Below are positions 8,501-62,673 of a stretch of 64,000 nucleotides of DNA, piece by piece (positions within the stretch are counted from its first letter, which is position 1; each line of letters opens with the position of its first letter). The DNA lies in the sequence record MK047718.1; one strand, 5' to 3'. The notes under the pieces were generated by a model, which saw only the letters and a list, made by a program, of their open reading frames with translations, was not told the origin of the DNA and did not search any database. This DNA is from Escherichia phage p000y. The position numbers and the translations under genes are program-made.

Positions 8501-8506
8501 TAAAAA

Positions 8507-8525
8507 GGAGACTTCGGTCTCCTTT
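8507..8525 (+). terminator. CUUCGG-tetraloop hairpin downstream of gene 41 (weak U tract)
   Basis: GGAGAC-TTCG-GTCTCC followed by TTT. Confidence 0.4.
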
Positions 8526-8588
8526 CGGGGTTTACATCTTCCTCTAGGCATGATATGATGAACTTACACCAACCAAGAGGAAAACATT

Positions 8589-8963
8589 ATGAATATGTCT
8601 CAAGCAATTTTTACTGCAATCACCGAAAACACAACTGTTGAAGTAGTTTCTCCACTGGCAACCTACGTTATTCTTGCTCCTAAAACTATTGTATCTCGTA
8701 TGGAAAACATGGGCAAACGTATCGTACAAATAGTTGGAGCTGGAAATCAAAAACTTGATTATCTACGAACCATCAAAGCTTATGAACATTTCCAACTCGA
8801 AAAAGGTTCTCCTATCCAGGTAGAACTCGTAAATGGTGATATCGTTCGAGCAATGTTCCATCATTTCTATGCATTGAATGACCCATCTAAAGCGGTTCGT
8901 TTAATTGCATACGACGCAAACCAAAAAGAAATCAACGCAGATGTATCTAAATTACGTTTTTAA
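8589..8963 (+). CDS. Hypothetical protein (124 aa)
   Basis: ORF with an upstream early-promoter-like element and a purine-rich RBS. Confidence 0.5.
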   Translation: MNMSQAIFTAITENTTVEVVSPLATYVILAPKTIVSRMENMGKRIVQIVGAGNQKLDYLRTIKAYEHFQLEKGSPIQVELVNGDIVRAMFHHFYALNDPSKAVRLIAYDANQKEINADVSKLRF

Positions 8964-9018
8964 GTTTACTTCTCCAGTAGTTGTGTTATTATAGACCTAT
9001 CAACTACTGGAGAACAAA

Positions 9019-9336
9019 ATGAAAACCATCGATTGTAAAGCAGAATTTAAGATTTTTTATCACGGTTCAAGTAGTTCAGCTAACATCGAAAACATGCTTT
9101 GTCCTCCTGAGGAAACAGGAGTTCTGTCTGAAACTGGACGTAAGAAAAACTTGGATCGTGTATTCTTTACTGAAGATATCGGTTTAGCAAAGATTTATGC
9201 AGGACGAGCGGCACGCTCTTATGGAGGTGAACCACGTCTCTATCGAGTAATTTCTCCGGTAGACGTAGTTCAAATGAATAATACTAAAGGTGCTACAGTT
9301 TATCACGCTGAATGGGCATTTTGCGAGGAAATATGA
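9019..9336 (+). CDS. Hypothetical protein (105 aa) with a YHGS motif
   Basis: RBS GGAGAA upstream. Contains FYHGSSS and KIYAGRAA segments. Confidence 0.5.
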   Translation: MKTIDCKAEFKIFYHGSSSSANIENMLCPPEETGVLSETGRKKNLDRVFFTEDIGLAKIYAGRAARSYGGEPRLYRVISPVDVVQMNNTKGATVYHAEWAFCEEI

Positions 9337-9521
9337 GCAAATTAACTAAAATTACTTTTATTGGCTGGTTTAAAAGCGGTGAGATGTTCACTAAAGATAT
9401 CATGTTATCAGGTGATCGTGAAGAAATCGAGTGGGTTGCGGTACAACTTGCTGAAGTAAACAATGCATTAGTTAAAGCATTTATTAATGACGAGAAAGTT
9501 TTTGAAGCAGATTTTCGATAA
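9333..9521 (+). CDS. dmd: Dmd (discriminator of mRNA degradation), inhibitor of RnlA/LsoA toxins
   Basis: MSKLTKITFIGWFKSGEMFTKDI...EVNNALVKAFINDEKV closely matches T4 Dmd as recalled; GAGGAA SD; ATGA overlap with the previous ORF. Confidence 0.8.
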   Translation: MSKLTKITFIGWFKSGEMFTKDIMLSGDREEIEWVAVQLAEVNNALVKAFINDEKVFEADFR

Positions 9522-9534
9522 TTTTAAAATAACT

Positions 9535-9564
9535 GTTTACAAGCACCGCATACTGTGTTACTAT
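9535..9564 (+). promoter_or_regulatory. T4-type early promoter
   Basis: GTTTAC, 18-nt spacer, TACTAT; followed by an RBS and the lipoprotein gene. Confidence 0.5.
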
Positions 9565-9592
9565 CTTTCTATCAACTACAGAGGAAATTGAA

Positions 9593-9961
9593 ATGAAAAA
9601 ATTAATCGCTTTAGCAATGGTATTTGGATTAACCGGATGTGGTGCCCACGGCTTTATCCCTAATAACGTTGGCCAACTGATTTACAATCCGAATGTTAAA
9701 CAGTACGACCAACCTAAAGTTGAAGTGGAAGATCCGGTTACTGTAGGTAATCGAATGATTCAAGCTGATGCTCATGCTCAACGTTATCGTGATTCTGATA
9801 CTGTAGCATTGTCAAAAGAACAACGCGTTAAAGAACATTGTCTACAGGCTACTGAAATCGCATTCATTCGCTATGTTGAAACAACTGGTAAAGAGCCTAC
9901 CCAGAAACAAATCGCGAATAACTACGTCCAGTGTATTGAACGTTTAAACAAATTTAATTAA
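9593..9961 (+). CDS. Putative lipoprotein (122 aa)
   Basis: Signal peptide with lipobox LTGC (MKKLIALAMVFGLTGCGA); own early promoter at 9535-9564. Confidence 0.55.
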   Translation: MKKLIALAMVFGLTGCGAHGFIPNNVGQLIYNPNVKQYDQPKVEVEDPVTVGNRMIQADAHAQRYRDSDTVALSKEQRVKEHCLQATEIAFIRYVETTGKEPTQKQIANNYVQCIERLNKFN

Positions 9962-10022
9962 TTGGTTTACGCAAAAGTTAAAACAAGATACTATAAACAT
10001 AACAAATCAAGAGGAAATTAAC

Positions 10023-10271
10023 ATGGAATTATTCGTAGCTAGTTCAGTAGCAGTTTTAATCGCAGGTATTGGTTCAATCATCATTTACATGTTGCCTTGG
10101 GTAATCGCACTTATTCGTGGCACAAAAAGCACAACAGCAATCTTCTTTGTATCTTTACTCTTTAACTGGACGATGATTGGTTGGATTGGAACTTTAATTT
10201 GGTCTATCGTTGCCGAAAAGAAATCTGCTCAGCAGCCTCAACAAGTAATTATTATTCGCGAAAAAGAATAA
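10023..10271 (+). CDS. Small membrane protein (82 aa, two predicted TM segments)
   Basis: Hydrophobic segments VASSVAVLIAGIGSIIIYMLPWVIALI and AIFFVSLLFNWTMIGWIGTLIWSIV; RBS GAGGAA. Confidence 0.5.
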   Translation: MELFVASSVAVLIAGIGSIIIYMLPWVIALIRGTKSTTAIFFVSLLFNWTMIGWIGTLIWSIVAEKKSAQQPQQVIIIREKE

Positions 10272-10275
10272 ACTT

Positions 10276-10305
10276 GTTTACATTATAGATGGACTATAGT
10301 ATAGT
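10276..10305 (+). promoter_or_regulatory. T4-type early promoter with inverted repeat GGACTA/TAGTCC flanking the -10
   Basis: GTTTAC...ggactatagtatagtagtcc; upstream of sp. Confidence 0.55.
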
Positions 10306-10334
10306 AGTCCTATCAAATCAACTAAGGAGTTAAA

Positions 10335-10628
10335 ATGAAAAAGTTATCATTGGCAGCAATCTTACTTGCAGTATCATGTGCACCGGCTCCAGTTACGGCA
10401 GGTTATGATAAAGACCTCTGTGAGTGGTCAATGACTGCAAATCAAGAAGATGTTGAACAACAAATCTTCTCTGATATCATGAACATCACTAAACGAGACC
10501 GTCCTAATATGGTTAATAAAGTTGTTGAACAACTTAAGTCTGGTGGTATCATGCAGTACAACTATGTTTTGTATTGTGACCCTAATTTCGATAACAAAGA
10601 TATCGTAACCGAAATCACAGGTGAATAA
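10335..10628 (+). CDS. sp: Spackle (periplasmic inhibitor of the gp5 lysozyme, superinfection exclusion)
   Basis: Signal peptide plus AGYDKDLCEWSMTA...GGIMQYNYVLYCD matches T4 Sp as recalled; AAGGAG SD. Confidence 0.8.
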   Translation: MKKLSLAAILLAVSCAPAPVTAGYDKDLCEWSMTANQEDVEQQIFSDIMNITKRDRPNMVNKVVEQLKSGGIMQYNYVLYCDPNFDNKDIVTEITGE

Positions 10629-11280
10629 TATGATTTATTATATGCACAAAAACGCACCATTTAAATATGGTAAATTTCCTAATGCACAATGTTATAATAT
10701 AACGCCGAACGAAAATAATAACGGATATCATATTGGTGTAATTTTTGTAATTGTTAAAGATAACGAAATCATTGCCTGGGCCGATTTTAAAGGTACAACA
10801 TATGATGTTAATCCTGTGCCTTTCACATATTACAATATAATGGATTTGGCATATGATTATAATTGGTTTAATCATGACACGTTGGCTCATATTGAAGGTG
10901 TAGGATTTGACATCTCTTATTCTAGCTATTCATTATGTCCTATGAGCCGAGCTCACGGTAAAGATGTATCATATCTTTCAATTCGGAAACGTGTAAACTT
11001 CAAACGTAGTACAGAGTATGTTGGTGGACTCTTTGTTAAAGATAATAAAATAACCCGTATTAGTTATCCTTTAAGTGTAGGTCAAAAAGATGTTGACGTT
11101 GATTTGGACTTAACTGAAAATAACATTAATCGTATTGCTTCTGTATATTTTGATATCGATGAAAAAATTGTAGTGTGTGGATACGAATTACCACCTGAAG
11201 AAAAGGCTGAAGCAATTGAAGTCGAATTAGAAATTTCTGTTGATGACCAAATATTTAATGCATTTATGAATCGAGGTTAA
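10621..11280 (+). CDS. Hypothetical protein (219 aa)
   Basis: Overlaps the sp stop; same-strand packing; lies in the 61.x interval. Confidence 0.5.
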   Translation: MNNMIYYMHKNAPFKYGKFPNAQCYNITPNENNNGYHIGVIFVIVKDNEIIAWADFKGTTYDVNPVPFTYYNIMDLAYDYNWFNHDTLAHIEGVGFDISYSSYSLCPMSRAHGKDVSYLSIRKRVNFKRSTEYVGGLFVKDNKITRISYPLSVGQKDVDVDLDLTENNINRIASVYFDIDEKIVVCGYELPPEEKAEAIEVELEISVDDQIFNAFMNRG

Positions 11281-11281
11281 A

Positions 11282-11479
11282 ATGACTACTGCAATTTGCA
11301 CTGGTTCTAAAATTAGTGTTTTTACAAGTTTTGAAGATTATGAAGTTGTTTCAAAACACCAATGCCATATTAGCGTAAAAGCTAATGACGGTGTAATTTG
11401 GAATATTCCACAGTATGAAGGCACTACATATGAAGTCACAGATATAAATGGTAACAAAGCAATCTTTGTAATTGATTAA
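11282..11479 (+). CDS. Hypothetical protein (65 aa)
   Basis: Tightly packed ORF starting 2 nt after the previous stop. Confidence 0.4.
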   Translation: MTTAICTGSKISVFTSFEDYEVVSKHQCHISVKANDGVIWNIPQYEGTTYEVTDINGNKAIFVID

Positions 11480-11498
11480 ATATACTCAGGAGGTACCT

Positions 11499-11966
11499 AT
11501 GGGTATTATTAACACTGCAATAGATTCTGTTTACGCATATAAGTTTATTCGACTAATGCAAAAACCTTTTACCGAATGGAAAGCATACGAAGCCAAAATC
11601 ATCGATGAACGTGGAAGTGTTCTTAAACGCCCTTCCACTCCTGAAGAGAAAGCGGCTTATACACCTTTTCATGCTTCAGTTCGTTCAATGAAGCGAATGA
11701 TGAACACTGTTCCAGGTCTTAATGGAATGGCATCAATGATGTCTGCCTGGAGTGCTGTAGCATCCCGCTATAACATTACAGAAGAACAGCAGAAAGAAAT
11801 ATTTAAAGAACTCCCTTTATTTGAGGATATGGTGGCTGGTGATTCAGGTGGCAGCCCTCAAGCTATTGCATCAGGAACAACCACAGGTGCAGTCGTAAAT
11901 AAAGGTCCAGAACAAATTCCTTCCAAGAAAAGAAAGCGAATTAAAGTAAATATTAATAAGTTGTGA
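11499..11966 (+). CDS. Hypothetical protein (about 155 aa)
   Basis: ATG at 11499 preceded by a strong SD (CAGGAGG) with 5-nt spacing; track start 11472 is a TTG inside the previous ORF. Confidence 0.5.
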   Translation: MGIINTAIDSVYAYKFIRLMQKPFTEWKAYEAKIIDERGSVLKRPSTPEEKAAYTPFHASVRSMKRMMNTVPGLNGMASMMSAWSAVASRYNITEEQQKEIFKELPLFEDMVAGDSGGSPQAIASGTTTGAVVNKGPEQIPSKKRKRIKVNINKL

Positions 11967-12005
11967 TATGATGGCCTTATTAATTTAAGGCCTCTGGAGA
12001 ATACT

Positions 12006-13222: not shown

Positions 13223-13310
13223 AATATCTCCTTAGTTACCTATTATTTATTACGCTTTATAAAATTAATGTTAGAATTAACTCTCTTATATTGAATTGAA
13301 AGGAAAAATA

Positions 13311-14219: not shown

Positions 14220-14221
14220 TT

Positions 14222-14458: not shown

Positions 14459-14467
14459 ATAATTTAA

Positions 14468-14492
14468 GGAATCCTTCGGGATTCCTTTTTTT
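14468..14492 (+). terminator. Intrinsic terminator after soc
   Basis: GGAATCC-TTCG-GGATTCC followed by T7. Confidence 0.75.
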
Positions 14493-14559
14493 GTTTCTAC
14501 AGTTTACAACCACTAAAAACTGTGTTAAGATATTCTTACTTACTCAAGAGGAGAACAAT

Positions 14560-14787
14560 ATGTTAAATCGTTGGATTAAACCTAATAACACATTAGGTGC
14601 TTTGATTGCTCAAGAAGTTTCGTTGAAATACGGTCTTGGATATTACGATGATGTAGTCGTACACTCATTCATGATGGATGGTGAAGACGTCAAATTTAAT
14701 GCCGAAATCCGTTGGGATGACGGTGGTGTTCGTTTTGTTCGAGGAACAATTAATGCTTACGATGCTGAAGAAGTTGTTTGCTGTTAA
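14560..14787 (+). CDS. Hypothetical protein (75 aa)
   Basis: ATG 14560 after AGAGGAG SD; the track N-terminal extension overlaps the promoter. Confidence 0.4.
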   Translation: MLNRWIKPNNTLGALIAQEVSLKYGLGYYDDVVVHSFMMDGEDVKFNAEIRWDDGGVRFVRGTINAYDAEEVVCC

Positions 14788-15629: not shown

Positions 15630-15630
15630 T

Positions 15631-15810: not shown

Positions 15811-16026
15811 AAGAGAAATTGAAAGAGAAATTCTTACTAGAAATCAAGGAAAAAGACTTTGAGACATGGTATCGAATGGTGAAAGGGTTGACATTGCTTT
15901 TTAAAGCATCCTTATTCATGTTAGAACAACCTGGTCCTGATGGACCTTTAGTAGGAAAGCTTAAAAAGTAGTTTACATTCCCTCCTCTCGTGTTATGATA
16001 GGCTTATCTTTAAATGGAGGTCTATC

Positions 16027-16608
16027 ATGACATGTCAATCTGAACTTCAAGAACGTGAATACCTAACAAATCTGATTGATAGCAAATTCACCCGCCAAGA
16101 ACAAAACATTCTCTGGGCTTGCACCGATTCTAAGGAAGACCCAGATTTCCACTATGAATTAGACCATCTTGTTCGTAAGCATATGACTTCTACAGTACCA
16201 GTAGAACTCTACCGTGGTGTAACTCCAGAAGAAGTAGAACGTCTTTCCCTTCTTTCTGTTGGATGCCATTGGTCTCCTGGACGAGTAACATCGTTCACAA
16301 CTGATTTCGGTACGGCTCGTCAATTCTCCGGGAGATGGGAATATCAGACGTACACTATTCTTAGTCTCAGGAATGCTCCATTCATTTTTGATTACTACCA
16401 AAACATGGTTAACATTGTACTCGCCGGAAAGAACCCTAAACATGTTATGGAAGAAACGCGTGTTGACGTCTTAGATATGATTGAATCTGAACAAGAGTAC
16501 ATGGTCTCAAGTATCTCTAGATTTGAGATTGTGGAAATTGAAGACTTAGAATATGACCCTTTATCTCGATTATACAAAATCATTCATTTGAAAATGTTGA
16601 ATTTTTAG
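16027..16608 (+). CDS. modA: ADP-ribosyltransferase, ModA-like
   Basis: R-S-E ART signature: LYRG (Arg), SFTTDFGTA (STS-like) and ESEQEYMV (ExE); tandem paralog follows; position matches T4 modA. Confidence 0.6.
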   Translation: MTCQSELQEREYLTNLIDSKFTRQEQNILWACTDSKEDPDFHYELDHLVRKHMTSTVPVELYRGVTPEEVERLSLLSVGCHWSPGRVTSFTTDFGTARQFSGRWEYQTYTILSLRNAPFIFDYYQNMVNIVLAGKNPKHVMEETRVDVLDMIESEQEYMVSSISRFEIVEIEDLEYDPLSRLYKIIHLKMLNF

Positions 16609-16665
16609 TGTACAAACTCTTCCGATGATGATACTATAGACCTATCAACCACAGGAGAAACCTAA

Positions 16666-17274
16666 ATGTTTATGCCGTATAACGAGTGTGAAATTGAAGA
16701 AATGGTTCGTCGTGCTCAAAACCCTGAATATCAAGATGAATTGCAGTATGAAATTGATAGTCAATTCAGTGACATTGAACAAAGTGTACTGTGGCGGTGT
16801 ATGGAAAACAAGCCAGACTGTATTCAACAGGAGTTAAGTTCAATCGTTCGTAGAAATTGGACGTCTTCTGTTCCTGAGACAATGTATCGTGGAATCTCTA
16901 AGAAAACTATGGCCGCACTCGATGATAAAGGCATTGGTAGTATTATTAAATTTGACAGAGTAATGAGCTTCAGCCCAGTGTTCGGTGTAGCACGTAACTT
17001 TGCTTCGTATAATTTTTACGGAACATTTAATATGTTCTGCATCAAAGATGCACCATTTGCTTTCAACTTCCGTGAACATATGCTTAACATGATTCTGGCT
17101 GCGCCATCTTGTGAGTTCAATGGAGCTTTCCCTGAAGCGACAAGACGGTCTAATGCTAGACTTATATCCGACGAATGTGAATTTATGCTCCCTATAGGGA
17201 CTACACTGCGTGTAGATTCTATTATTCAAGATGGACGTTATACAATCTGGAATCTGTCTATTGTCAGTTACTGA
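16666..17274 (+). CDS. modB: ADP-ribosyltransferase, ModB-like
   Basis: Paralog of the previous gene: MYRG, SFSPVFGVA and DECEFMLP motifs; 202 aa. Confidence 0.6.
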   Translation: MFMPYNECEIEEMVRRAQNPEYQDELQYEIDSQFSDIEQSVLWRCMENKPDCIQQELSSIVRRNWTSSVPETMYRGISKKTMAALDDKGIGSIIKFDRVMSFSPVFGVARNFASYNFYGTFNMFCIKDAPFAFNFREHMLNMILAAPSCEFNGAFPEATRRSNARLISDECEFMLPIGTTLRVDSIIQDGRYTIWNLSIVSY

Positions 17275-17427
17275 CTGAATTGGAATAACCGGATGGAACT
17301 CAGAACCATTATAACACATAAAAAATTAAAGCATTTTACGAAAAAAGAGTGTACACTACCTGAGGGCATGATATTATAGACTTATCAGCTAAATGACCTT
17401 AACGTCCGTAAGACAGAGGAAAATATT

Positions 17428-18174
17428 ATGTTATCAAATAATAAAATTAACAAAATCAATCGTCGTCTTGACCACACCAGAGCTTCTGCGAAGAGACGCT
17501 CTAAGGATTTTAACTTAGACTTTAATTACCTTAAAAACATTCTTGATCAAAAGGTCTGCGCTTACTCAGGCGAATCTTTCAATAACTCTGTTGAAGGTGA
17601 GAAATTATCCTTAGAACGTTTTAATAACGATATCGGCTACATTAAAGGTAATGTTATCCCAGTTAAGAAAAAATATAACACGGCTCGTTCTGATTTAACA
17701 TTAGAAGAACTTATTGAGAAACGTGACGCTGTTGCAAGACGTATTGCTAATCCTTCTGCCCGTAAAGTAGAGAAACTTAATCTCGACGAGAAGAAATGGG
17801 CCCAAATTAAAAAGGTTTATGATACTATTTTAAAAATACGAGCAAAACGTGAAAATCGTGTTAAGCATATGGCGAACATGATGAAAAATCAACCTTTATC
17901 TAACGAATCTAAACTTAGAATTGTTGCTTTGAAAGCACGCATTAATGGCTCACATCAAGCAGAAGGCCATGAACTTACTAAACTCAACGTTCTTCTTAAA
18001 GGCTCTGACTGGAAAACTAAAACTAAATTAACTGACGCTGAATCGCTTTTCGATACATATGATAAAGTTATCCAAGGTCTGCAACGTTTTGAAAAGATTG
18101 GTTTCATTGGTAAATTAAAATTGAAACGTGGCTTACCACTTAGCGCATCATTATTCCAACTGATTAAAGGTTAA
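17428..18174 (+). CDS. Hypothetical protein (248 aa), in the position of T4 srd; N-terminal region resembles a degenerate HNH-like motif
   Basis: CAYSGESF...LSLERFNNDIGYIKGNVIPV; lies between modB and dda.1 as srd does in T4. Confidence 0.4.
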   Translation: MLSNNKINKINRRLDHTRASAKRRSKDFNLDFNYLKNILDQKVCAYSGESFNNSVEGEKLSLERFNNDIGYIKGNVIPVKKKYNTARSDLTLEELIEKRDAVARRIANPSARKVEKLNLDEKKWAQIKKVYDTILKIRAKRENRVKHMANMMKNQPLSNESKLRIVALKARINGSHQAEGHELTKLNVLLKGSDWKTKTKLTDAESLFDTYDKVIQGLQRFEKIGFIGKLKLKRGLPLSASLFQLIKG

Positions 18175-20490: not shown

Positions 20491-20520
20491 GTTTACAACC
20501 AAGGATGGTTGGAGTATAAT
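20491..20520 (+). promoter_or_regulatory. T4-type early promoter with spacer hairpin AACCA-AGGA-TGGTT
   Basis: GTTTAC, 18-nt spacer, TATAAT. Confidence 0.55.
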
Positions 20521-20550
20521 CTTTCTATCTTAACCAAACAGGAAAACATT

Positions 20551-21045
20551 ATGAATATCAATACCACGGCTACTTACATCCTGAAAGATGAAAAACAAAT
20601 CAACTGGTACGGTGCTTCAGTGCGAGCTTATGAAAAGTTTTGTGAAATTTTAGGTGCCACTCAAGGTAATAGTTTCACTATTGTTAACTTCATCAAACAA
20701 GTTGAAGGCCCTTGGTTATTCTTAGAAATTAAAAATTCATATGGTATAATTTCTACTACCGCCCTTCCAAGCACCGACTTTGAACTGTTGATTGAAGAAG
20801 TAGAACCCGTTAAAGATATCTGTATTGATATGGATATCGCTTGTATGTACGGTACTCTGATTAAGCCTATTGAGCCTACTGATTTGTTGTGTAAATATGT
20901 TTCAATTCGACGCCCATTCGCTGGTCCAGTAAATGGATGGGTAACTGACCAATGGATTGAAGACGGTGTTGAACTTCTGAACGTTGTTCATGCAGGTGAT
21001 TTTAGTGTAGTTCCACGTAGTGCTGTGGTTAATATCCTTAATTAA
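20551..21045 (+). CDS. Hypothetical protein, paralog family member 1 (about 164 aa)
   Basis: ATG 20551 after an early promoter and RBS; shares the C-terminal motif DQWIEDGVELLNVVHAGDFSVVP with the next two ORFs. Confidence 0.5.
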   Translation: MNINTTATYILKDEKQINWYGASVRAYEKFCEILGATQGNSFTIVNFIKQVEGPWLFLEIKNSYGIISTTALPSTDFELLIEEVEPVKDICIDMDIACMYGTLIKPIEPTDLLCKYVSIRRPFAGPVNGWVTDQWIEDGVELLNVVHAGDFSVVPRSAVVNILN

Positions 21046-21107
21046 TGTTGTACATCCAAGGACGGATGGAGTATAATGAATTCAACTTAAACAAAGAGAG
21101 AGAAATT

Positions 21108-21563
21108 ATGATTACTATTGGTGAAATTAAGCGTGTATCGTCTGCATCTCGTTCTAAAGCTGCAGGTCGTCTAGTTGAAGTGGTAGGACTTCGTACTAAT
21201 GGTACTGGTCGTGTTAAAGAAGTTAAAGTTCGAATCATTCCTAGTTCTGGAAAAACTGAAACTCAGTACGCTTACGTAAGTCCTAAATTCTTGGAAACTC
21301 ATGTGAGCGCTCATTTTGCTTCTACTGAACCTAATGTACAGTTCAAATGGGCCTTGTGTAAAGGTGTTGAATTCCAGACTGATAAAGAATTTGACTTCAT
21401 CGATGAATACGGTTATCCAAGCAAAACTGATACTATGTGTGGCTTCATTAGTGACCAATGGGTTGAAGATGGTGAAAAGTTATACAATATCGTATTCTTA
21501 GGTGACTTCCGAGTTGTTAAAGAATCTGAAATCACTCGCTATGTGTCTCCTCGTAAAGCTTAA
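21108..21563 (+). CDS. Hypothetical protein, paralog family member 2 (about 151 aa)
   Basis: ATG 21108 after AGAGAGAGAA RBS; VSSASRSKAAGRLVEV and DQWVEDGEKLYNIVFLGDF shared with neighbours. Confidence 0.5.
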   Translation: MITIGEIKRVSSASRSKAAGRLVEVVGLRTNGTGRVKEVKVRIIPSSGKTETQYAYVSPKFLETHVSAHFASTEPNVQFKWALCKGVEFQTDKEFDFIDEYGYPSKTDTMCGFISDQWVEDGEKLYNIVFLGDFRVVKESEITRYVSPRKA

Positions 21564-21992: not shown

Positions 21993-22051
21993 AGTTGTTT
22001 ACTTCTCCTCCGGTTTTGATATTATAACCATATCAACCAGAGGAGAATAAT

Positions 22052-22576
22052 ATGTTAGTTTACCGCGTAGAACGTAGTTTTTGTACTCAACGTGAATCAT
22101 TACCAGGAATTGCTATCGAAGACGGTAAAGCCGTCAGAATTTGGGAAACCTCTTGGAATAAAGAACCTCGCTCGCCATACGGTTGGTCGGGCACCGACAA
22201 CTCTGAAGAAACATGGGAGTTCCTTGATAAGCATGGAATACTCTCAGGTAACTTCTACCATCACGGCGACAACTATAATGTCCCTAATCGTCCTACAGTA
22301 AATGAAGACAAACTCCTTGAACAAAATATCTTAAGATACCATAGAATTGAGTACACATTTGAATTGAGTGAAGATTGGGCTCAAGGGTTCTATTTTGGAT
22401 TTGAAAGCGTTGACGCGGTTTATGCATGGTTTGATGACCAGGTGGATGTTGAACTCTTGAAAGCTAAAGGATACTACATCGCGGTCTATGAAGCACCTGA
22501 TTTCATCCTCGGAAGTTGTCAATTAATGTTCAGACGTTCATTGGCAGAACAAGTTGATTTTATTTTGCTAAAATGA
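22052..22576 (+). CDS. Hypothetical protein (174 aa)
   Basis: Early promoter plus AGAGGAGAA RBS upstream. Confidence 0.5.
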   Translation: MLVYRVERSFCTQRESLPGIAIEDGKAVRIWETSWNKEPRSPYGWSGTDNSEETWEFLDKHGILSGNFYHHGDNYNVPNRPTVNEDKLLEQNILRYHRIEYTFELSEDWAQGFYFGFESVDAVYAWFDDQVDVELLKAKGYYIAVYEAPDFILGSCQLMFRRSLAEQVDFILLK

Positions 22577-22605
22577 TGTACAACAACTATGGTTTATGAT
22601 ACTAT
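22577..22605 (+). promoter_or_regulatory. T4-type early promoter
   Basis: TGTACA, 17-nt spacer, TACTAT; conserved downstream ...TATAGACCTATCAA motif. Confidence 0.45.
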
Positions 22606-22633
22606 AGACCTATCAAATCAAGAGGAGAATATT

Positions 22634-22861
22634 ATGAAATGTCAAATCATTAAAAACGTAACTACTGATTCAAACATCGATGAGTTTGAAGATGTTCTGT
22701 TTAATCCTGATTTAGTTGTTGTACAGAAAAACTGGACCGGATTTTTATGCTACACCGAAGTGGTTTACGTTTACGAAAAACTCGGCGATGAAATGCCTAT
22801 CTATGGTATCTTCCGTGAAATCACTGAAAACGGTACAACTTATTGGAAGGAAACTTACTAA
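22634..22861 (+). CDS. Hypothetical protein (75 aa)
   Basis: ATG 22634 after AGAGGAGAA RBS; the track N-terminal extension overlaps the promoter. Confidence 0.45.
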
Positions 22862-31191: not shown

Positions 31192-31221
31192 GTTTACAAC
31201 TAAGTAGGACTATGATATAGT
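31192..31221 (+). promoter_or_regulatory. T4-type early promoter with inverted repeat GGACTA/TAGTCC
   Basis: GTTTAC...taggactatgatatagtagtcctatc. Confidence 0.55.
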
Positions 31222-31247
31222 AGTCCTATCTAAAAGAGGATAACATC

Positions 31248-31511
31248 ATGAAATTTAAATTTTTCTACGCAAAACATAAAGTAACAGGCGAATTTGTTTC
31301 AATGTACAACACTGCAGATGACGAAGGGATGATTTATACCCATTTGGGTCTATCTCATTGGGACTCAGACGTGCCTTATATGTCATCTGAAGCCGAAATA
31401 ACTCGTTTAGTTAACGGACATATGAACGACCATTTTAGTGTTATTCTTTCTAAAGACCTTAAAGAGGTTATCAACAAAGGATATATGGAACTTGCGGAAG
31501 TTGAGATATGA
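31248..31511 (+). CDS. Hypothetical protein (87 aa)
   Basis: Early promoter 31192-31221 plus AGAGGA RBS. Confidence 0.45.
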   Translation: MKFKFFYAKHKVTGEFVSMYNTADDEGMIYTHLGLSHWDSDVPYMSSEAEITRLVNGHMNDHFSVILSKDLKEVINKGYMELAEVEI

Positions 31512-31700: not shown

Positions 31701-31730
31701 GTTTACAACAAGGTAGGATTATGGTATAGT
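31701..31730 (+). promoter_or_regulatory. T4-type early promoter with inverted repeat GTAGGA/TCCTAC
   Basis: GTTTAC...gtaggattatggtatagtagtcctac. Confidence 0.55.
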
Positions 31731-31758
31731 AGTCCTACTGAAACATGAGGAACACAAA

Positions 31759-31959
31759 ATGGCTAAGCTTTTTAAAGATGTTGAAATTGGTGAAAAATTT
31801 GTTCTGAATAACGGTCAGCAGCTTATTCGTGTAGCTTCTATCGCCGGACAAACTCATAACTGTATCGCCCCAACGTGTTGGACTCGATTCTTTATTGAAG
31901 ATGACACTGAATGTTTAACTGTTGAAGAGCTTTTTGAACGTTCCGATATAGCCGAATAA
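31759..31959 (+). CDS. Hypothetical protein (66 aa)
   Basis: Early promoter 31701-31730 plus GAGGAA RBS. Confidence 0.45.
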   Translation: MAKLFKDVEIGEKFVLNNGQQLIRVASIAGQTHNCIAPTCWTRFFIEDDTECLTVEELFERSDIAE

Positions 31960-31961: not shown

Positions 31962-31991
31962 TTGTACAAACTCTTGAGAGCAGAGTATAAT
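31962..31991 (+). promoter_or_regulatory. T4-type early promoter with inverted repeat GAGAGCA/TGCTCTC spanning the -10 TATAAT
   Basis: TTGTAC...gagagcagagTATAATgctctc; upstream of ndd. Confidence 0.55.
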
Positions 31992-32035
31992 GCTCTCATG
32001 GATTACAAAAACATTAATCAATTGAGGAAATTAGC

Positions 32036-32482
32036 ATGTCCAAATATTTAACTCGTAAAGACCTTCTGGCAGTTGGTGGTGAAGTTGTTGCCGTAGTTCG
32101 TAATGGCGAATACGGTTCTGAAGTTTCTAAAGAGTTTCGTTCTCGTGAAGGTTTTTACTTCTTTGTTAAAGGCTCATCCGATTGGCGACAAGTAGCAGCA
32201 CGATTCTTTGTAGGACGTCAACGTTCTAAACAAGGGTTGGATGCAATTCTTTCTCACATTCGTCAAGGCCGTTCGCAACTAGCCCGCACTATGGGCACTA
32301 ACAATATTGAATATGATGTAATCTTTGTTGCAGCTAAGAACATGAAACCACTGACCACTGGTTATGGTAAAGGTCAATTGGCTCTGGCATTCACTCGCAA
32401 CCATACATCAGAATATCAAACACTCACTGAAATGAACCGTCTTCTGGCAGATAATTTCAAATTCATTCTTCAGAGTTACTAA
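32036..32482 (+). CDS. ndd: Ndd nucleoid disruption protein
   Basis: [12 protein letters not shown]...[33 protein letters not shown]...[45 protein letters not shown] matches T4 Ndd as recalled. Confidence 0.85.
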
Positions 32483-34268: not shown

Positions 34269-34298
34269 GTTTACACGTGCTTCAAACATGATATTATA
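34269..34298 (+). promoter_or_regulatory. T4-type early promoter upstream of motA
   Basis: GTTTAC, CACGTG palindrome in the spacer, A/T-rich -10. Confidence 0.45.
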
Positions 34299-34336
34299 AA
34301 CCTATCAAAACAAAACAACCGAATTGGAGAAATAAA

Positions 34337-34969
34337 ATGTCTAAAGTTACTTACATCATCAAAGCTTCTGAAAACGCTCTGAATGAAAAAACTGCTGCAA
34401 TAATGGTTTATATCATTAAGAACAACTTCACCACTGCTGCCAATGTCCGTGAAGCTCTGGAAGCAGAATACAATGCATCGGTTGTTAACTCTAACATTGG
34501 TGTATTGATTAAGAAAGGTTTGGTCGAAAAATCCGGTGATGGACTTGTAGCAACAGGCGAAGCAATGGATATTATCCAAAAAGCTGCAGACCTATTTGCT
34601 CAAGAAAATGCTCCAGAACTTCTTCAGAAACGTAACACCAGAAAAGCACGTGGAGTTACTCCTGAAATGCATGAATTAGCAAACTTTGTTTTTGAAAATA
34701 TTAAAGATAAAGTTGAAGTTAAAGAAATTGGTGAAAACCGTAGTAACTTAGAAGTTCGATTTGCAAAACGAGTTCTAGGTATTCGTCAGATCGAAATTCG
34801 TCGAGATGGCGCTCTTAGAATCTTTGCATACAACATGTCAGAAACTGAATCAAAGCTGTTTACTTCTCTTGAAAATGATGTTAAGATTAAGATCGGTGGT
34901 AAATATACTTACATTGACTTCCCTAATGTGTCCAAAGAAATCATTACCCTTGTAACTAACGTACTGTGA
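34337..34969 (+). CDS. motA: MotA middle-transcription activator
   Basis: MSKVTYIIKAS...VVNSNIGVLIKKGLVEKSGDGL...QENAPELL matches T4 MotA as recalled; 210 aa. Confidence 0.9.
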   Translation: MSKVTYIIKASENALNEKTAAIMVYIIKNNFTTAANVREALEAEYNASVVNSNIGVLIKKGLVEKSGDGLVATGEAMDIIQKAADLFAQENAPELLQKRNTRKARGVTPEMHELANFVFENIKDKVEVKEIGENRSNLEVRFAKRVLGIRQIEIRRDGALRIFAYNMSETESKLFTSLENDVKIKIGGKYTYIDFPNVSKEIITLVTNVL

Positions 34970-36633: not shown

Positions 36634-36784
36634 TCTTCAGAACGTAGTAGAGGCCGAACGTGAGCGCGAGGCTTTAGTCTATAATGAACTATTAGTTCAA
36701 TTCTTGGTCTTACACTCGTATGAACAGGAAGACTATACCAATTACGTTAAAAGCGTAGAAAAAGCCGTTTACAATCAACACTGA
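36623..36784 (+). CDS. Hypothetical protein (53 aa)
   Basis: ATG 36623 with AAGGAA SD; the track start 36569 lies inside the previous ORF. Confidence 0.35.
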   Translation: MSHNLQNVVEAEREREALVYNELLVQFLVLHSYEQEDYTNYVKSVEKAVYNQH

Positions 36785-36830
36785 TAATGGTACTATATCC
36801 ATATCAACTAAGTGGAATGAATAAAACGTT

Positions 36831-37103
36831 ATGAATAAAGACATTGAAATCGTACGTGAAATTATTACTATTGCTTCTATTTTGATTAAATTCTCTAGGG
36901 AAGATATTGTTGAAGACCGAGCAAGTTTCATCGGATTCTTGAATGAGATTGGAATTAAAAAAGATGGTCGGCAGCTAAATCAGAATTCTTTTAGAAAACT
37001 AATTACAAATTTAACTGCCGAAGAAAAGAAAACACTGATTAGTGAATTCAATGAAGGTTTTGAAAATATTTATCGTCATTTAGCGATGTATTCTAACAAC
37101 TAA
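36831..37103 (+). CDS. asiA: AsiA anti-sigma70 factor
   Basis: MNKDIEIVREIITIASILIKFSREDIVEDRA...NEGFENIYRHLAMYSNN near-identical to T4 AsiA as recalled. Confidence 0.9.
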   Translation: MNKDIEIVREIITIASILIKFSREDIVEDRASFIGFLNEIGIKKDGRQLNQNSFRKLITNLTAEEKKTLISEFNEGFENIYRHLAMYSNN

Positions 37104-47419: not shown

Positions 47420-47449
47420 GTTTACGCTTTCAAATGAGTGTGTTACTAT
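47420..47449 (+). promoter_or_regulatory. T4-type early promoter upstream of rnh
   Basis: GTTTAC, 18-nt spacer, TACTAT. Confidence 0.45.
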
Positions 47450-47481
47450 AGACAAGTTGACTAACTGAACAAGAGGTTCAT

Positions 47482-48399
47482 ATGGATTTAGAAATGATGT
47501 TGGATGAAGATTACAAAGAAGGTATTGCGCTTGCCGACTTTAGTAACATTGCACTGGCAGCCGCATTAAACAACTTTGAAGACGGCGATAAAATTACAGT
47601 TCCAATGGTTCGCCATGTAATCTTGAATTCAATTCGTAAAAACGTAGTGATGTTCCGTAAGCAAGGCTATACAAAATTTGTATTGTGTATGGATAATGCT
47701 ACTTCGGGTTATTGGCGTCGAGACTTTGCTTACTATTACAAGAAAAATCGTAAAACCGATCGTGAAGCTTCAAAGTGGGATTGGGAAGGATATTTTACTG
47801 CACTCCATCAAGTTGTTGATGAGATTAAGAAATACATGCCATACGTTGTAATGGATATTGACAAGTATGAAGCGGATGACCATATCGGTGTATTAACTAA
47901 ATATTTGTCATTAGCTGGACATAAAGTATGTATTGTTGCATCAGATGGTGACTTTACACAATTACACAAATATCCTAACGTTAAACAGTGGTCGCCACCA
48001 CAGAAAAAATGGGTTAAAATTAAGAATGGTTCTGCTGAAATTGATTGCATGACTAAAATTCTTAAAGGTGACCGTAAGGATGGTGTTGCATCTGTTCGAG
48101 TTCGTGGCGACTTCTGGTTTACCAGAGTTGATGGTGAACGAACTCCGAGTATGAAAACATCGATTATTGAAGCAATTGCCAATGACCGTTCTCAAGCTGA
48201 AGTATTATTAAGTGCAGAAGAATATAAACGGTATCAAGAAAATTTGGTTCTCATTGATTTTGATTATATCCCTGATAATATTGCTTCAACCATTATAGAG
48301 TATTATAACTCGTATAAACAACAACCTAAAGGCAAGATTTATTCATACTTTGTAAAATCTGGTCTTTCTAAATTAACAAGTGTAATTAATGAATTCTGA
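47482..48399 (+). CDS. rnh: RNase H (FEN-family 5'-3' exonuclease)
   Basis: 305 aa, same length as T4 RNase H; acidic motifs (CMDNATSGYWRRD, DKYEADDHIGVL, ASDGDFTQL). Confidence 0.9.
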   Translation: MDLEMMLDEDYKEGIALADFSNIALAAALNNFEDGDKITVPMVRHVILNSIRKNVVMFRKQGYTKFVLCMDNATSGYWRRDFAYYYKKNRKTDREASKWDWEGYFTALHQVVDEIKKYMPYVVMDIDKYEADDHIGVLTKYLSLAGHKVCIVASDGDFTQLHKYPNVKQWSPPQKKWVKIKNGSAEIDCMTKILKGDRKDGVASVRVRGDFWFTRVDGERTPSMKTSIIEAIANDRSQAEVLLSAEEYKRYQENLVLIDFDYIPDNIASTIIEYYNSYKQQPKGKIYSYFVKSGLSKLTSVINEF

Positions 48400-50698: not shown

Positions 50699-50783
50699 GA
50701 GTATCTGTAAATTGCCGAAAAAGTTGTTTACTTCTTCCCTGGATGTATTAGTATAGACATATCAACAACATGAGGAAATCAAA

Positions 50784-51188
50784 ATGGAAATCGGAAAATC
50801 TTATATCATTAACCCTTTATTTAAAGACGACTTTGTTCAAGAAGCACCACATAATAACGCTAAGATGTTAAAACTGATTGAACTCCATGGGCCTAGTTTT
50901 GTTGTAAACGGAATGGAACCTGATTACGATAGCGATACGCCAAACGTAGTAAGTGTAACTATGGAAGATGGTACTGTATGTTCTGCCGGTGGTGAAATTG
51001 AAACTTATTTTGAGATTTATCCTGATGAGTTCAAATACTTTATTGAGTACTTTACTGAGGTAGATTTAGTAAAGCCTCAACCTACTAACGAAGGTATAAC
51101 TTTAGGTGTAACAAAAATCCATTGTATCGTAGATGAAACCAACGTCGACGAAATCATCGAACTTTTGCAAAAAACTTTTAAAAAGTAG
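50784..51188 (+). CDS. Hypothetical protein (134 aa)
   Basis: Early promoter and RBS upstream; 32-frd interval. Confidence 0.5.
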   Translation: MEIGKSYIINPLFKDDFVQEAPHNNAKMLKLIELHGPSFVVNGMEPDYDSDTPNVVSVTMEDGTVCSAGGEIETYFEIYPDEFKYFIEYFTEVDLVKPQPTNEGITLGVTKIHCIVDETNVDEIIELLQKTFKK

Positions 51189-51216
51189 TTTACAATCAGA
51201 TAGGGTTATGTTATAG
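51187..51216 (+). promoter_or_regulatory. T4-type early promoter with inverted repeat GATAGGG/CCCTATC
   Basis: GTTTAC...gatagggttatgttatagtagccctatc. Confidence 0.55.
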
Positions 51217-51251
51217 TAGCCCTATCAAATAAAAGTGAAGAGGAGAATAAA

Positions 51252-51494
51252 ATGAGATTGCAACGCCAGAGCATCAAAGATTCAGAAGTTAGAGGTAAAT
51301 GGTACTTCAACATCGTTGGTAAAGATGCTGAACTCCTTGAACAAGCTGAAGAAGCTTTACGTGAAATGGGTTGGAACGAAGAATGTGATGGATGTCCACT
51401 CTACGAAGATGGTATATCATCCGGATTCTGGATTTATCACTCGGATGTCGACCAATTTAAAGCTGATTGGAAAATTGTGAAAAAGTCTGTTTGA
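51252..51494 (+). CDS. Hypothetical protein (80 aa)
   Basis: Early promoter 51187-51216 plus GAGGAGAA RBS. Confidence 0.5.
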   Translation: MRLQRQSIKDSEVRGKWYFNIVGKDAELLEQAEEALREMGWNEECDGCPLYEDGISSGFWIYHSDVDQFKADWKIVKKSV

Positions 51495-57253: not shown

Positions 57254-57664
57254 ATGAAAGATATCGCCGCCGAATATTCCTTTATTAAATATACAGAATT
57301 GGAGCTATTAGAAGATGCAACAATTAAAACAGTTGATGTCCCTAATAAGAAAAATGTCATATATGCTATTGCTATAGATGACGAACTTGTGTATATTGGT
57401 AAAACCAAGAATTTAAAGAAACGCATTAACTATTATCGAACAGCCATAAATCGAAAAGACCAGACTTCAGATTCAAGAAAATCACTTATGATTTTGGATG
57501 CCTTAATGCAAGGCAAAAAGGTTGAATTCTGGGCCCGCCAATGTTTTGACCTTTCAGTCACCAACGAACTTGGTTCAATGACCATCGCAACAATGGACCT
57601 TGAAGAACCACTTTTTATCAAAAAGTTCAACCCGCCTTGGAATATCCAACATAAGAAAAAGTAG
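57254..57664 (+). CDS. denA: Endonuclease II (DenA), GIY-YIG family
   Basis: 136 aa (T4 DenA is 136 aa); GIY-YIG-like VIYAIAIDDELVYIGKTKNLKKRINYY; position after nrdB. Confidence 0.8.
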   Translation: MKDIAAEYSFIKYTELELLEDATIKTVDVPNKKNVIYAIAIDDELVYIGKTKNLKKRINYYRTAINRKDQTSDSRKSLMILDALMQGKKVEFWARQCFDLSVTNELGSMTIATMDLEEPLFIKKFNPPWNIQHKKK

Positions 57665-57693
57665 TTTACATACCACAAGGATTGTGGTACAAT
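57664..57693 (+). promoter_or_regulatory. T4-type early promoter with spacer hairpin ACCACAA-GGA-TTGTGGT
   Basis: GTTTAC, 18-nt spacer, TACAAT; upstream of rnlA. Confidence 0.55.
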
Positions 57694-57710
57694 TTAAAAA
57701 AACTAACTGA

Positions 57711-58844
<1,134 letters not shown>

Positions 58845-58856
58845 CGGTTTACAAAC

Positions 58857-58886
58857 ACCAAGGATGGTGATACTATGGGTTTATCA
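58857..58886 (+). promoter_or_regulatory. T4-type early promoter with spacer hairpin CACCA-AGGA-TGGTG
   Basis: GTTTAC, 18-nt spacer, TACTAT; upstream of the alc-like gene. Confidence 0.55.
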
Positions 58887-58905
58887 ACAACACGAGGAGA
58901 AAATT

Positions 58906-59406
58906 ATGAATATGCAATTGATTACTAACGATATGGTCGTAAACGCTTTTGGAGACACAACTGACGGAATCCGGGTCTTTAAGAAAGGACGTCCAGTTGG
59001 TTATCTTACTGACCTACGGGTTACACTGGCCAAAAATCTTAAAAAGAAAGTAAAACAAAAAGAGTATTCAACCCGATACGCTGAAGAGAAACGCGAAGCG
59101 ATGCCAGAAGCAGTTAATGCTATGGTAGAATTTCTTCAAAACAATTTGACTAAATATGACGCTAATGTGTTCATTAATATTAGTCAACCAAACGTACATA
59201 TCGCAGGTATAAAATTCTACATTATTTGCGACCCTCTTACCGACAAATTCAACCGTCTCGGAATTTCAAGTCCATATCATACAGCAGAAGAGTTGTGTGT
59301 ATTGTTTGAATCGTACAAAATCCAGTGTGATGGTTTGAAAACCGTTCTTATCAATGGATTATCCCGAGATGAAATCATTGAGATTATTAAAACATGCTTA
59401 AAGTAA
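58906..59406 (+). CDS. alc: Alc-like protein (position- and size-based)
   Basis: ATG 58906 after GAGGAGAA RBS; 166 aa against T4 Alc 167 aa; between rnlA and the spanins. Confidence 0.5.
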   Translation: MNMQLITNDMVVNAFGDTTDGIRVFKKGRPVGYLTDLRVTLAKNLKKKVKQKEYSTRYAEEKREAMPEAVNAMVEFLQNNLTKYDANVFINISQPNVHIAGIKFYIICDPLTDKFNRLGISSPYHTAEELCVLFESYKIQCDGLKTVLINGLSRDEIIEIIKTCLK

Positions 59407-60037: not shown

Positions 60038-60252
60038 CTAAAGAACAGCATGAATACATTAAAGGGCTTATCTATGAATCTGAAATGGCGGCTATGATTT
60101 ATGGACGCCAGATTCAACGATTAGAATCTTTGCCTCCGACTAATGACCGCTTGTTAGTTCAGTCTCGTGCTAATCTGAAAAATGAATATCAGAATAAGTG
60201 GGCAGTAGCGACTAAAGCTCTTCATGAGTATATTGAATCTTTAGTAAAATAG
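60028..60252 (+). CDS. Hypothetical protein (74 aa)
   Basis: Overlapping start; pseT.1-like position. Confidence 0.45.
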   Translation: MPMTKEQHEYIKGLIYESEMAAMIYGRQIQRLESLPPTNDRLLVQSRANLKNEYQNKWAVATKALHEYIESLVK

Positions 60253-60281
60253 TTTACAAACTCTCAGGAGCAGAGTATAAT
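60253..60281 (+). promoter_or_regulatory. T4-type early promoter with inverted repeat GGAGCA/TGCTCC spanning the -10 TATAAT
   Basis: GTTTACaaactctcaggagcagagTATAATgctcc; near-duplicate of the promoter at 31962. Confidence 0.55.
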
Positions 60282-60309
60282 GCTCCTATGGATAATTGAG
60301 GAAATCTAA

Positions 60310-60608
60310 ATGAAAACATTACTAGAGAATTACATCAAACGGTCTGATGAGTATATTGATATCTGTCGTGGAATGTCACTTGGCAATTATGACAAAGATG
60401 CAGCAAAGGCACTAGATGAAGCAGGTAAAGCTCTTCGTAAAGCTGCTAAAGAAAAAGGGTTGGATTTGCAACAACTCAAAAGTCATATGATTAAATTTAT
60501 TTCTTCAAACGTTAGAAGTACGTCAATTAATAAAAACGTTGCTGAAATTAATAAAGACCGGCGCGAGCATAACATTCGTATTCTTGAAATTTTCTTAGGA
60601 ATAAAATA

Positions 60609-62378: not shown

Positions 62379-62408
62379 GTTTACAACATGGTGGAGTTGT
62401 GATACTAT
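62379..62408 (+). promoter_or_regulatory. T4-type early promoter
   Basis: GTTTAC, 18-nt spacer, TACTAT; ACAAC/GTTGT inverted repeat in the spacer. Confidence 0.45.
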
Positions 62409-62436
62409 AACTCTACCAACAAATGAGGAAATAGAA

Positions 62437-62673
62437 ATGCTAAGTGAAAACCCAATTACAGTACACGAATTTCAGATTAAAGTAAAAGAATTTGCTCAAG
62501 CACTCATCAATAAAGTGTCTGAACGTTTCCAAGATGCAACATTACGAGTTATTCAAGAATCTCCACGTTCTTTTCTCATAATCGTTAATCCTAAAGATGG
62601 TGACCAAATTACTAATCTTAAATTAGGCAGTGATGGTCTTGTTGAAGCAACTCGAGTATATGGAACACTATAA
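62437..62673 (+). CDS. Hypothetical protein (78 aa)
   Basis: Early promoter 62379-62408 and GAGGAAA RBS. Confidence 0.45.
   Translation: MLSENPITVHEFQIKVKEFAQALINKVSERFQDATLRVIQESPRSFLIIVNPKDGDQITNLKLGSDGLVEATRVYGTL

Follow-up and report, generated by a model that had tools for sequence, protein, structure and literature searches.

The site under study, at 10276-10310 of the 64,000-nucleotide window from Escherichia phage p000y (MK047718.1), lies in the gap that separates the stop codon of imm at 10271 from the ATG of sp at 10335 and reads GTTTACATTATAGATGGACTATAGTATAGTAGTCC, followed by TATCAAATCAACTAAGGAGTTAAAATG. Its elements comprise a -35 GTTTACA at 10276-10282, a -10 TATAGT at 10300-10305 and an SD sequence AAGGAG, and the inverted repeat GGACTAT/(G)TAGTCC flanks the -10 (MFE z = -2.6). 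The predicted +1 is the A at 10312. A 6-kb piece around the site shares 98.5% identity with Escherichia coli O157 typing phage 3 (Mosigvirus) and shows weaker similarity to hundreds of T4-like phages. On sequence identity, the window is that of a Mosigvirus, within the RB69 group of T-even phages; it is approximately 95-97.5% identical to RB69 across the compared region and represents a separate isolate. According to annotation transfer, the window spans the classical T-even early region. The + strand carries uvsX, 40, 41, dmd, imm.1, imm, sp, 61, 56, soc, mrh, modB, modA, srd, dda, dexA, motB, cef, 39, rIIA, rIIB, denB, ndd, 52, motA and asiA in this order. A minus-strand late block (t, 38 and 37-34) follows asiA, after which the + strand is used again for rnh, 32, frd, td, nrdA, nrdB, rnlA, alc and pseT.

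The earlier note had listed eight further coordinates with the layout of the finding site and had put the number of copies at 15 or more. All eight display the same arrangement, and the count rises to 25. A loose -35/-10 search came first, and a profile HMM built from the alignment of 25 sites then returned exactly these sites at E <= 0.015 (Table 1). A clear score gap separates them from the next-best match (E = 0.4). All copies are on the + strand, and no match better than E = 3.7 was detected on the minus strand. In an unbiased repeat search, the modules made up the principal dispersed repeat families (D1, D3-D7, D11, D14 and D20). Each copy is positioned immediately 5' of an ORF and on the strand of that gene (25/25); imm, sp, modA, modB, srd, motA, motB, asiA, ndd and alc are among the genes that the copies precede. 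When 8-24 kb was scanned with a generic sigma-70 consensus, 61 matches were obtained against 52.4 expected, which is the chance level. The generic scan is therefore unable to validate the sites, and it is an extended, phage-specific signature that defines the module family. The profile HMM parts the modules cleanly from the background, whereas the generic scan does not.

Table 1. Modules of the putative early-promoter family in the window, named by the gene or ORF that follows each of them.
Downstream gene or ORF	Positions	Strand	RB69 orthologue	Repeat family	Features
ORF041c	8530..8591	+	Pe:20971		directly after the terminator-like hairpin of gene 41; spacer TCTTCCTCT pairs with SD AGAGGAA
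ORF040c-dmd	8964..9021	+	Pe:20537	D5	candidate SD-masking class; perfect 14-bp inverted repeat of spacer TTCTCCAGTAGTTG and leader CAACTACTGGAGAA, covering GGAG; hairpin -21.5 kcal/mol; MFE z = -4.5
imm.1	9535..9595	+	Pe:19761		no significant hairpin
imm	9965..10025	+	Pe:19331		no hairpin
sp (finding site)	10276..10337	+	Pe:19020		putative early promoter
mrh.2	14502..14562	+	Pe:14950		canonical terminator hairpin just 5' of the module (14466-14487)
modB	15971..16029	+	Pe:13466		-10 region pairs with SD/start-codon region
modA	16608..16668	+	Pe:12829		four consecutive substitutions relative to RB69, toward the family consensus (ACCTTT -> AGACCT)
srd	17349..17430	+	Pe:12088		long leader, 44 nt
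motB.1	20491..20553	+	Pe:8947	D11	small spacer hairpin ACCA-AGGA-TGGT
motB	21048..21110	+	Pe:8387	D11	75% identity over 64 nt to the 20491 module
motB.2	21997..22054	+	Pe:7443	D5	candidate SD-masking class; spacer TTCTCCTCCGGTT pairs with leader AACCAGAGGAGAA (13-bp repeat); MFE z = -4.3
cef	22576..22636	+	Pe:6863		
87-aa ORF	31192..31250	+		D1	TAGGACTA/TAGTCCTA flanks -10; z = -2.7
66-aa ORF	31701..31761	+		D1	GTAGGATTA/TAGTCCTAC flanks -10; z = -3.5
ndd	31962..32038	+		D20	GAGAGC/GCTCTC flanks TATAAT; z = -3.3
motA	34269..34339	+			
asiA (anti-sigma factor)	36767..36833	+			
rnh	47420..47484	+			start-region block second most divergent, 3/8 match to CCTATCAA
134-aa ORF, after gene 32	50726..50786	+		D5	
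80-aa DUF5417 ORF	51188..51254	+			GATAGGGTTAT/(G)TAGCCCTATC flanks -10; z = -4.7
rnlA	57664..57722	+			spacer hairpin CCACA-AGGAT-TGTGG; spacer almost the same as in the T4 promoter 5' of rIIA.1
alc	58847..58908	+			spacer hairpin CACCA-AGGA-TGGTG
99-aa ORF	60252..60312	+		D20	AGGAGC/GCTCCT flanks TATAAT; matches the ndd module at 83% identity over 46 nt, stem changes compensatory
78-aa ORF	62379..62439	+			GGTGGAGTTGTGA/(T)ATAACTCTACC; z = -3.8; 13-pair repeat, two pairs G-U; loop holds the first part of the -10 (TAC)

With the -10 hexamer set at -12 to -7, the modules share one overall order: an A-rich region, the -35 GTTTACA, a spacer of 16 or 17 bp, an extended -10 (TGn-TAyWAT) and CCT-A-TCAA at the predicted start. 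The A-rich part resembles an UP element, with A at -40 in 20/25 copies and A or T at each of the positions -43 to -41 in 24/25. G-36 is present in 16 copies, and all 25 contain TTTAC or TGTAC, the alignment columns T17, T19, A20 and C21 being invariant; the A at -30, following TTTAC, is also among the conserved positions. The extended -10 has T-15 in 20/25 and G-14 in 19/25, while T-12, A-11 and T-7 occur in every copy, giving TAnnnT. The ATA(c/g) motif described in the earlier note is present, but its variable base, which belongs to the -10, is mostly C or T (TACTAT or TATTAT) rather than c or g.

The block from -3 to +5, CCTATCAA, is matched exactly in 6/25 copies, at seven or more of its eight positions in 11 and at six or more in 16. 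Upstream of the start, the counts are 19/25 for C-3, 12/25 for C-2 and 21/25 for T-1, and from the start onward they are 24/25 for A+1, 18/25 each for T+2 and C+3, and 19/25 for A+5. These column counts exceed the base composition (background frequencies of 0.18 for C and 0.32 for A). Furthermore, the 14-mer TATAGACCTATCAA with up to three mismatches has 19 matches against 8.7 expected, a number reached in 0/100 shuffles. The block is thus conserved beyond chance, as the earlier note had supposed; its placement wholly inside the transcript is not upheld, as the block straddles the predicted start. Sigma-70 geometry alone suggests that transcription starts at the A 7 nt after the -10 in CCT-A-TCAA. 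By this geometry, the predicted transcripts would begin with AUCAA, and the CCT would be untranscribed. The predicted start A residues of the 25 modules are at 8566, 8999, 9571, 10001, 10312, 14538, 16006, 16644, 17384, 20527, 21084, 22032, 22612, 31228, 31737, 31998, 34304, 36803, 47456, 50761, 51224, 57700, 58883, 60288 and 62415.

The distance from the predicted start A to the ATG gives a leader of 20-24 nt in 19/25 copies, with GAGGA or GGAG 5' of the ATG. On the 5' side, the preceding ORF could be identified for 22 copies. In 16 of them, 0-6 nt separate the stop codon of that ORF from TTTAC; the final base of the stop coincides with position -36 in seven cases. With the stop codon so near TTTAC, a single module takes up the entire intergenic gap of 55-63 nt, its A-rich region lying within the coding sequence of the gene before it.

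These features indicate that the modules very probably represent the early promoters, dependent on sigma-70, of a T-even phage of the RB69 type, with a short leader and an RBS joined to each. The early-promoter reading of the earlier note is thereby strengthened: the modules carry the T4 signature (A-rich region, GTTTAC, TGn and TAnnnT), they face genes by 25 to 0, and 13 have RB69 orthologues. T4 early promoters are composed of UP, -35, TGn and -10 elements with additional consensus regions (Hinton 2010, PMC2988021). The comparison with T4 that the earlier note had proposed gave a positive result, in that the same search over 30 kb of T4 detected the same signature 5' of T4 early genes. A covariance model built from the 25 sites, using sequence only, retrieved 71 further copies in T4 and 12 T4-like contigs, all on the gene strand. 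The same consensus appears in T4 and three other lineages, and, according to the consensus strings by lineage, the start region TATCAACTAC recurs in T4-like phages and two more distant groups. In RB69, 58 early promoters were predicted and their coordinates published in Additional file 3 of Nolan et al. 2006 (Virol J 3:30). All 13 modules at 8.5-22.6 kb map one-to-one to Pe:20971 through Pe:6863 of that list. The GenBank record of Yersinia phage fPS-2 labels the orthologous motB.2 site 'predicted early promoter'. The T4 record AF158101 contains no promoter features, and none of the Mosigvirus records of O157 typing phage 3, moha, RB69 and NicPhage annotates these promoters. A literature search for genome-wide start-site maps of T4 or RB69 found nothing relevant. 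The module set is useful for annotating Mosigvirus genomes.

It is hardly credible that the modules are MotA-dependent middle promoters, late promoters or intrinsic terminators instead. A sigma-70-type -10 is common to the modules and middle promoters, and hairpins are present in some modules; however, the module sequences contradict each of these assignments. The MotA box of middle promoters (TGCTT at -30), which takes the place of a -35 element, occurs in 0/25 modules, and the pattern TGCTTNA-N11-13-TANNNT, with 14 matches against 3.8 expected, overlaps none of them. When the -10 hexamers only were compared with the late-promoter sequence TATAAATA, 0/25 matched. Among the 13 modules (of 25) in the interval 8000-24000, none has a terminator-like hairpin, and a scan of the whole window against Rfam gave no family match. 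Since the module stems are A/T-rich and lack a U-tract, they would be poor intrinsic terminators, and strong termination is doubtful. A reading of the modules as chance repeats was likewise rejected.

The palindrome that the earlier note had listed among the module elements has no constant sequence: the inverted repeats are site-specific, and they occur in no more than approximately 10 copies out of 25. The repeats are non-random, and the functions proposed for them below are putative. Folding of the region from -42 to +24 of each module against dinucleotide shuffles yielded a summed MFE z of -6.7 over the 25 modules. Eight of them reach z <= -2.5 (8964, 10276, 21997, 31192, 31701, 31962, 51188 and 62379), two are marginal, and approximately 15 have no significant hairpin. 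In a column-preserving shuffle, each alignment column was permuted among the 25 modules, which keeps the consensus and breaks the correlations within a site; here z ranged from -6.7 to -8.6, and 0/400 shuffles reached the native value. The native left and right halves also fold better than chimeras (p = 0.013). In a fixed register, the helix between -22..-15 and -8..-1 is paired in 63.5% of the cells, compared with 60.4% after shuffling (33/500 shuffles as high). This weak covariation arises because the stem registers differ between sites, and the module consensus is itself partly self-complementary in the fixed-register test.

Three geometries were distinguished. In the first, the stems flank the -10 and end at about -1, as at the finding site, ndd and the 60252 module. 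The second consists of small hairpins within the spacer (motB.1, rnlA and alc). In the third, long stems form between the spacer and the SD leader, with the -10 and the start in the loop (8964 and 21997). The repeat around the -10 of P(sp) is kept in four lineages with unrelated sequences, namely GGACTAT/(G)TAGTCC, GGGATAATA/TATTATCCC, GGGATAAT/ATTATCCC and AAGGCCAT/ATGGCCTT, and is absent from the T4 lineage. An operator for a common repressor was rejected, as the repeat sequences vary by site. The 3' arm of the hairpins either ends at or before +2 or covers the SD with the start in the loop; hence a module's own transcript cannot form the hairpin, and the hairpin can act only on read-through RNA or on DNA.

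Two rival readings centre on the repeats. In the first, which is possible but rather unlikely, the inverted repeats serve mainly as translational licences: the RBS would be hidden in read-through RNA, and the gene would be translated only from its own early-promoter transcripts, whose start lies within the loop, with expression ceasing once the early promoters shut off. The motB.2 promoter speaks in its favour. Among GenBank phage records, its spacer-to-SD stem is kept in four genera, Mosigvirus, Tequatrovirus, Karamvirus and Dhakavirus, with stem sequences that differ in each through compensatory changes and predicted dG values of -19 to -25 kcal/mol; a viral-contig search for MotB.2 relatives returned only near-identical phages. 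The perfect repeat of the 8964 module lies over GGAG, and the predicted accessibility of the start region increases from read-through to own RNA, from 0.20 to 0.51 in this module and from 0.24 to 0.58 in the 15971 module. The same hairpin logic operates in T4 e, soc, 49 and I-TevI, with late promoters. GGAG can also be shielded by RNA structure from cleavage by RegB (PMC3014915). As a general explanation, however, this reading is opposed by the restriction of strong spacer-to-SD pairing to 4/25 modules, by duplex energies of native pairs that are no better than those of chimeric pairs family-wide (p = 0.59), and by the fact that most hairpins end before +2 and never reach the SD. For the spacer-SD class itself, RBS masking in read-through RNA is the simplest reading. 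We regard as still less probable a defined subclass of T-even early promoters in which the -35/-10 spacer and the SD leader of the downstream gene are reverse complements. Read-through RNA would then be silent in translation, RNA from the gene's own early promoter alone would be translated, and synthesis of the protein would be tied strictly to the first minutes of infection. Such complementarity is exemplified by motB.2 in four genera, ORF040c-dmd in the window phage and cef in T4. More speculatively, the conserved block from -3 to +5 might be a cis target of early-promoter shut-off.

The second reading, that the modules, above all their inverted repeats, are mainly DNA recombination sites with promoter activity secondary to this role, appears improbable. 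On this reading, gene cassettes would be excised, inserted and swapped at the modules. It draws on PeSLs, which consist of an early promoter, a stem-loop (usually in the -35/-10 spacer or over the -10) and an SD (PMC2839356; PMC4122927), and whose mini-circles have been shown experimentally in RB49/phi1 (PMC2839356). Modules at unrelated loci fall into sub-families with 76-83% identity over 46-58 nt. One of these sub-families unites T4 P(motB), whose stem is GGGACC/GGTCCC, with P(ndd) and the promoter of the ORF at 60310 in the window phage. Three differences in gene order between T4 and the window phage are bounded by modules: two extra promoter-ORF cassettes (ORF041c/ORF040c) lie between 41 and dmd; imm.1-imm adjoins sp, whereas its T4 position is between 42 and 43; and the order of motB.2 and motB.1-motB is permuted. 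The four substitutions toward the consensus in the 16608 module look like a short conversion patch. In contrast, three features are predicted for a promoter and not for a recombination site: all copies keep to one strand, their distance to the ATG is fixed, and precisely the polymerase-contact positions are conserved. Evidence that is unfavourable, or neutral at best, comes from a comparison of RB69, NicPhage and O157 typing phage 3, which revealed about six indels in all, a number too small to reveal recombination at modules; only one of them abuts a module. This 61.4-ORF indel, next to the 9535 module, involved a microhomology, ATTTC, and not a pair of modules, and the others lie far from modules. 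The portability that the earlier note had ascribed to the cassettes receives qualitative support from the sub-families at non-orthologous loci and the three T4 breakpoints at modules; it is plausible and has already been published as a concept.

On the early-promoter reading, the host RNA polymerase holoenzyme would bind the A-rich region, GTTTACA, TGn and TAyWAT, as T4 biology suggests. Initiation would occur at the conserved A, 7 bases past the -10, in the pyrimidine(-1)/purine(+1) context CCT-A-TCAA, and, by analogy with T4, the promoters would be fired by the host sigma-70 polymerase immediately after infection (Hinton 2010, PMC2988021). The resulting mRNA leader of 20-24 nt would be G-poor and A/C-rich, carrying GAGGA or GGAG 6-9 nt 5' of the ATG, and this short leader with its GGAG-type RBS would allow immediate translation. 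The predicted outcome is immediate-early production of small regulators and host-takeover proteins from imm, sp, modA, modB, srd, motA, motB, asiA, ndd and alc. The RegB nuclease, which inactivates early mRNAs, has targets of a matching type, GGAG with A-rich sequence after it (PMC3014915). Where a hairpin forms in read-through RNA, it may mask the RBS that follows or, as the PeSL model proposes, act as an attenuator or insulator of transcription. Since the modules are alike in sequence, they would make homology available for recombination, by which promoter-gene cassettes could be reshuffled.

Both the promoters and the cassette idea are already known, from the RB69 predictions of 2006 and the PeSL work of 2010 and 2014, and the module family is real but ordinary. 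The RB69 predictions fall at the same loci and also note a preference for C at -3 to -1; their models cover 49-53 nt, and the main text of that paper does not discuss the ATCAA block at +1..+5, the leader or the inverted repeats (Nolan 2006). The least-described details are the start region TATCAACTAC across genera and the compensatory upkeep of hairpins that could form only in read-through RNA, including those of the candidate SD-masking subclass. Both details bear on the insulation of the dozens of tandem T-even early transcription units and on the switch-off of early expression.

Compared with T4, the window phage shares the A-rich region, GTTTAC, TGn, TAnnnT, very short leaders and the GGAG RBS of the early promoters. 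The T4 promoters retrieved by the same model also share the start region, and some of them contain inverted repeats. The two phages differ in the CC at -3/-2, which is stronger in the window phage, and in the sub-families of the promoters carried by orthologous genes; the T4 sp promoter lacks the repeat found in P(sp) of the window phage. The likeness to PeSLs lies in the composite arrangement, from an upstream stop in an A/T-rich stretch through an early promoter, in part of the modules a stem-loop, and an SD to the start codon; the stem-loop of a PeSL may also lie elsewhere than in the spacer or over the -10. PeSLs are clustered among small non-essential genes and have been proposed to be mobile regulatory cassettes, in which the stem-loops attenuate upstream transcription and the modules recombine, shuffling the cassettes (PMC2839356; PMC4122927). 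Their description comes from RB49/phi1, T4/PST and KVP40/nt-1 and does not extend to RB69-type phages (Arbiol 2010; Comeau et al. 2014). In a lacZ reporter, strong termination was demonstrated for one G/C-rich stem-loop of RB49 (Arbiol et al. 2010, PMC2839356). Whereas PeSL stems are polyG/polyC, those in the window are A/T-rich, and only about 40% of the window modules have a significant stem, unlike the PeSL definition.

In systems with a hairpin-masked RBS, the RBS is paired in read-through RNA and free in transcripts started inside the hairpin, a geometry shared by the 8964 and 21997 modules and their orthologues. The known cases use late or middle promoters, and the gene is switched on late. 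A hairpin-masked RBS is also found in Aeh1 mobE (cited in PMC3014915). In contrast to the known cases, the internal promoter of the window modules is early and would confine translation to the early period. If true, the SD-masking subclass would represent the early-promoter mirror image of the late-gene hairpin switches.

At the motB.2 promoter, the Shine–Dalgarno (SD) leader is the reverse complement of the spacer directly 3′ of the −35 element in four genera (Mosigvirus, Tequatrovirus, Karamvirus and Dhakavirus), and the sequence of the resulting stem differs in each of them. The loop of this stem contains the predicted transcription start. Judged from the sequence, the ribosome-binding site of motB.2 could be hidden in read-through RNA only.

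In its discriminator, the modA promoter departs from those of RB69 and phiE142 by four substitutions in a row, by which ACCTTT becomes AGACCT. Since the substituted block is identical to those of the early-promoter modules starting at 8964 (ORF040c-dmd) and 22576 (cef), this patch may reflect a short gene conversion between modules. A second local difference borders the 9535 module (imm.1) on its upstream side, where an approximately 210-bp 61.4-like ORF, present between dmd and the imm.1 promoter in RB69, moha and NicPhage, is absent; the deletion joint exhibits an ATTTC microhomology. The top sub-threshold match to the module profile (E = 0.4) lies 5′ of the primase gene 61. This site possesses an extended −10 element, TGTGATATGAT, without GTTTAC; beyond this element, the leader contains an inverted repeat of 7 bp (GGCCTTA/TAAGGCC) immediately 5′ of the SD.

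The sequence also differs from RB69 in the soc.2/soc.1 region, which is replaced (348 nt here, 193 nt in RB69) and has no early-promoter module nearby. A 65-aa ORF homologous to RB69ORF029w is located on the minus strand between genes 61 and 56, in an early region otherwise encoded entirely on the plus strand. The long tail fibre genes contain internal direct repeats of 28–52 nt (repeat families D2, D9, D17 and D19), which probably encode repeated structural motifs of gp34 and gp37.

Coordinates of the features (window positions unless stated otherwise)
Feature	Position	Strand
Sugar-nucleotide/thymidylate genes	1-5443	
61.4-like ORF deletion joint	9514-9523	
Gene 61 upstream site	11960-12005	
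RB69ORF029w homologue	13025-13222	minus
soc.2/soc.1 region	13834-14183	
modA discriminator	16633-16637	
motB.2 promoter	21997-22054	
motB.2 promoter orthologue, L002	T4 8161-8231	minus
motB.2 promoter orthologue, L028		
motB.2 promoter orthologue, L029		
Direct repeats in long tail fibre genes	38500-46100	minus
MotA-box patterns, range	964-62502	
MotA-box patterns, examples	4833, 14884, 23895, 48282, 52251, 61389	plus

At the start of the window, GlmU-like and phosphoheptose isomerase sugar-nucleotide genes adjoin thymidylate-synthase-like and thymidylate-kinase-like genes, as identified from the annotation of RB69 and O157tp3 (E. coli O157 typing phage 3). This group, which we take to be an RB69-type DNA hypermodification cluster, contains no early-promoter modules. 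The MotA-box middle-promoter pattern TGCTTNA-N11-13-TANNNT occurs 14 times, against 3.8 expected, and these sites are consistent with the middle promoters predicted in RB69.
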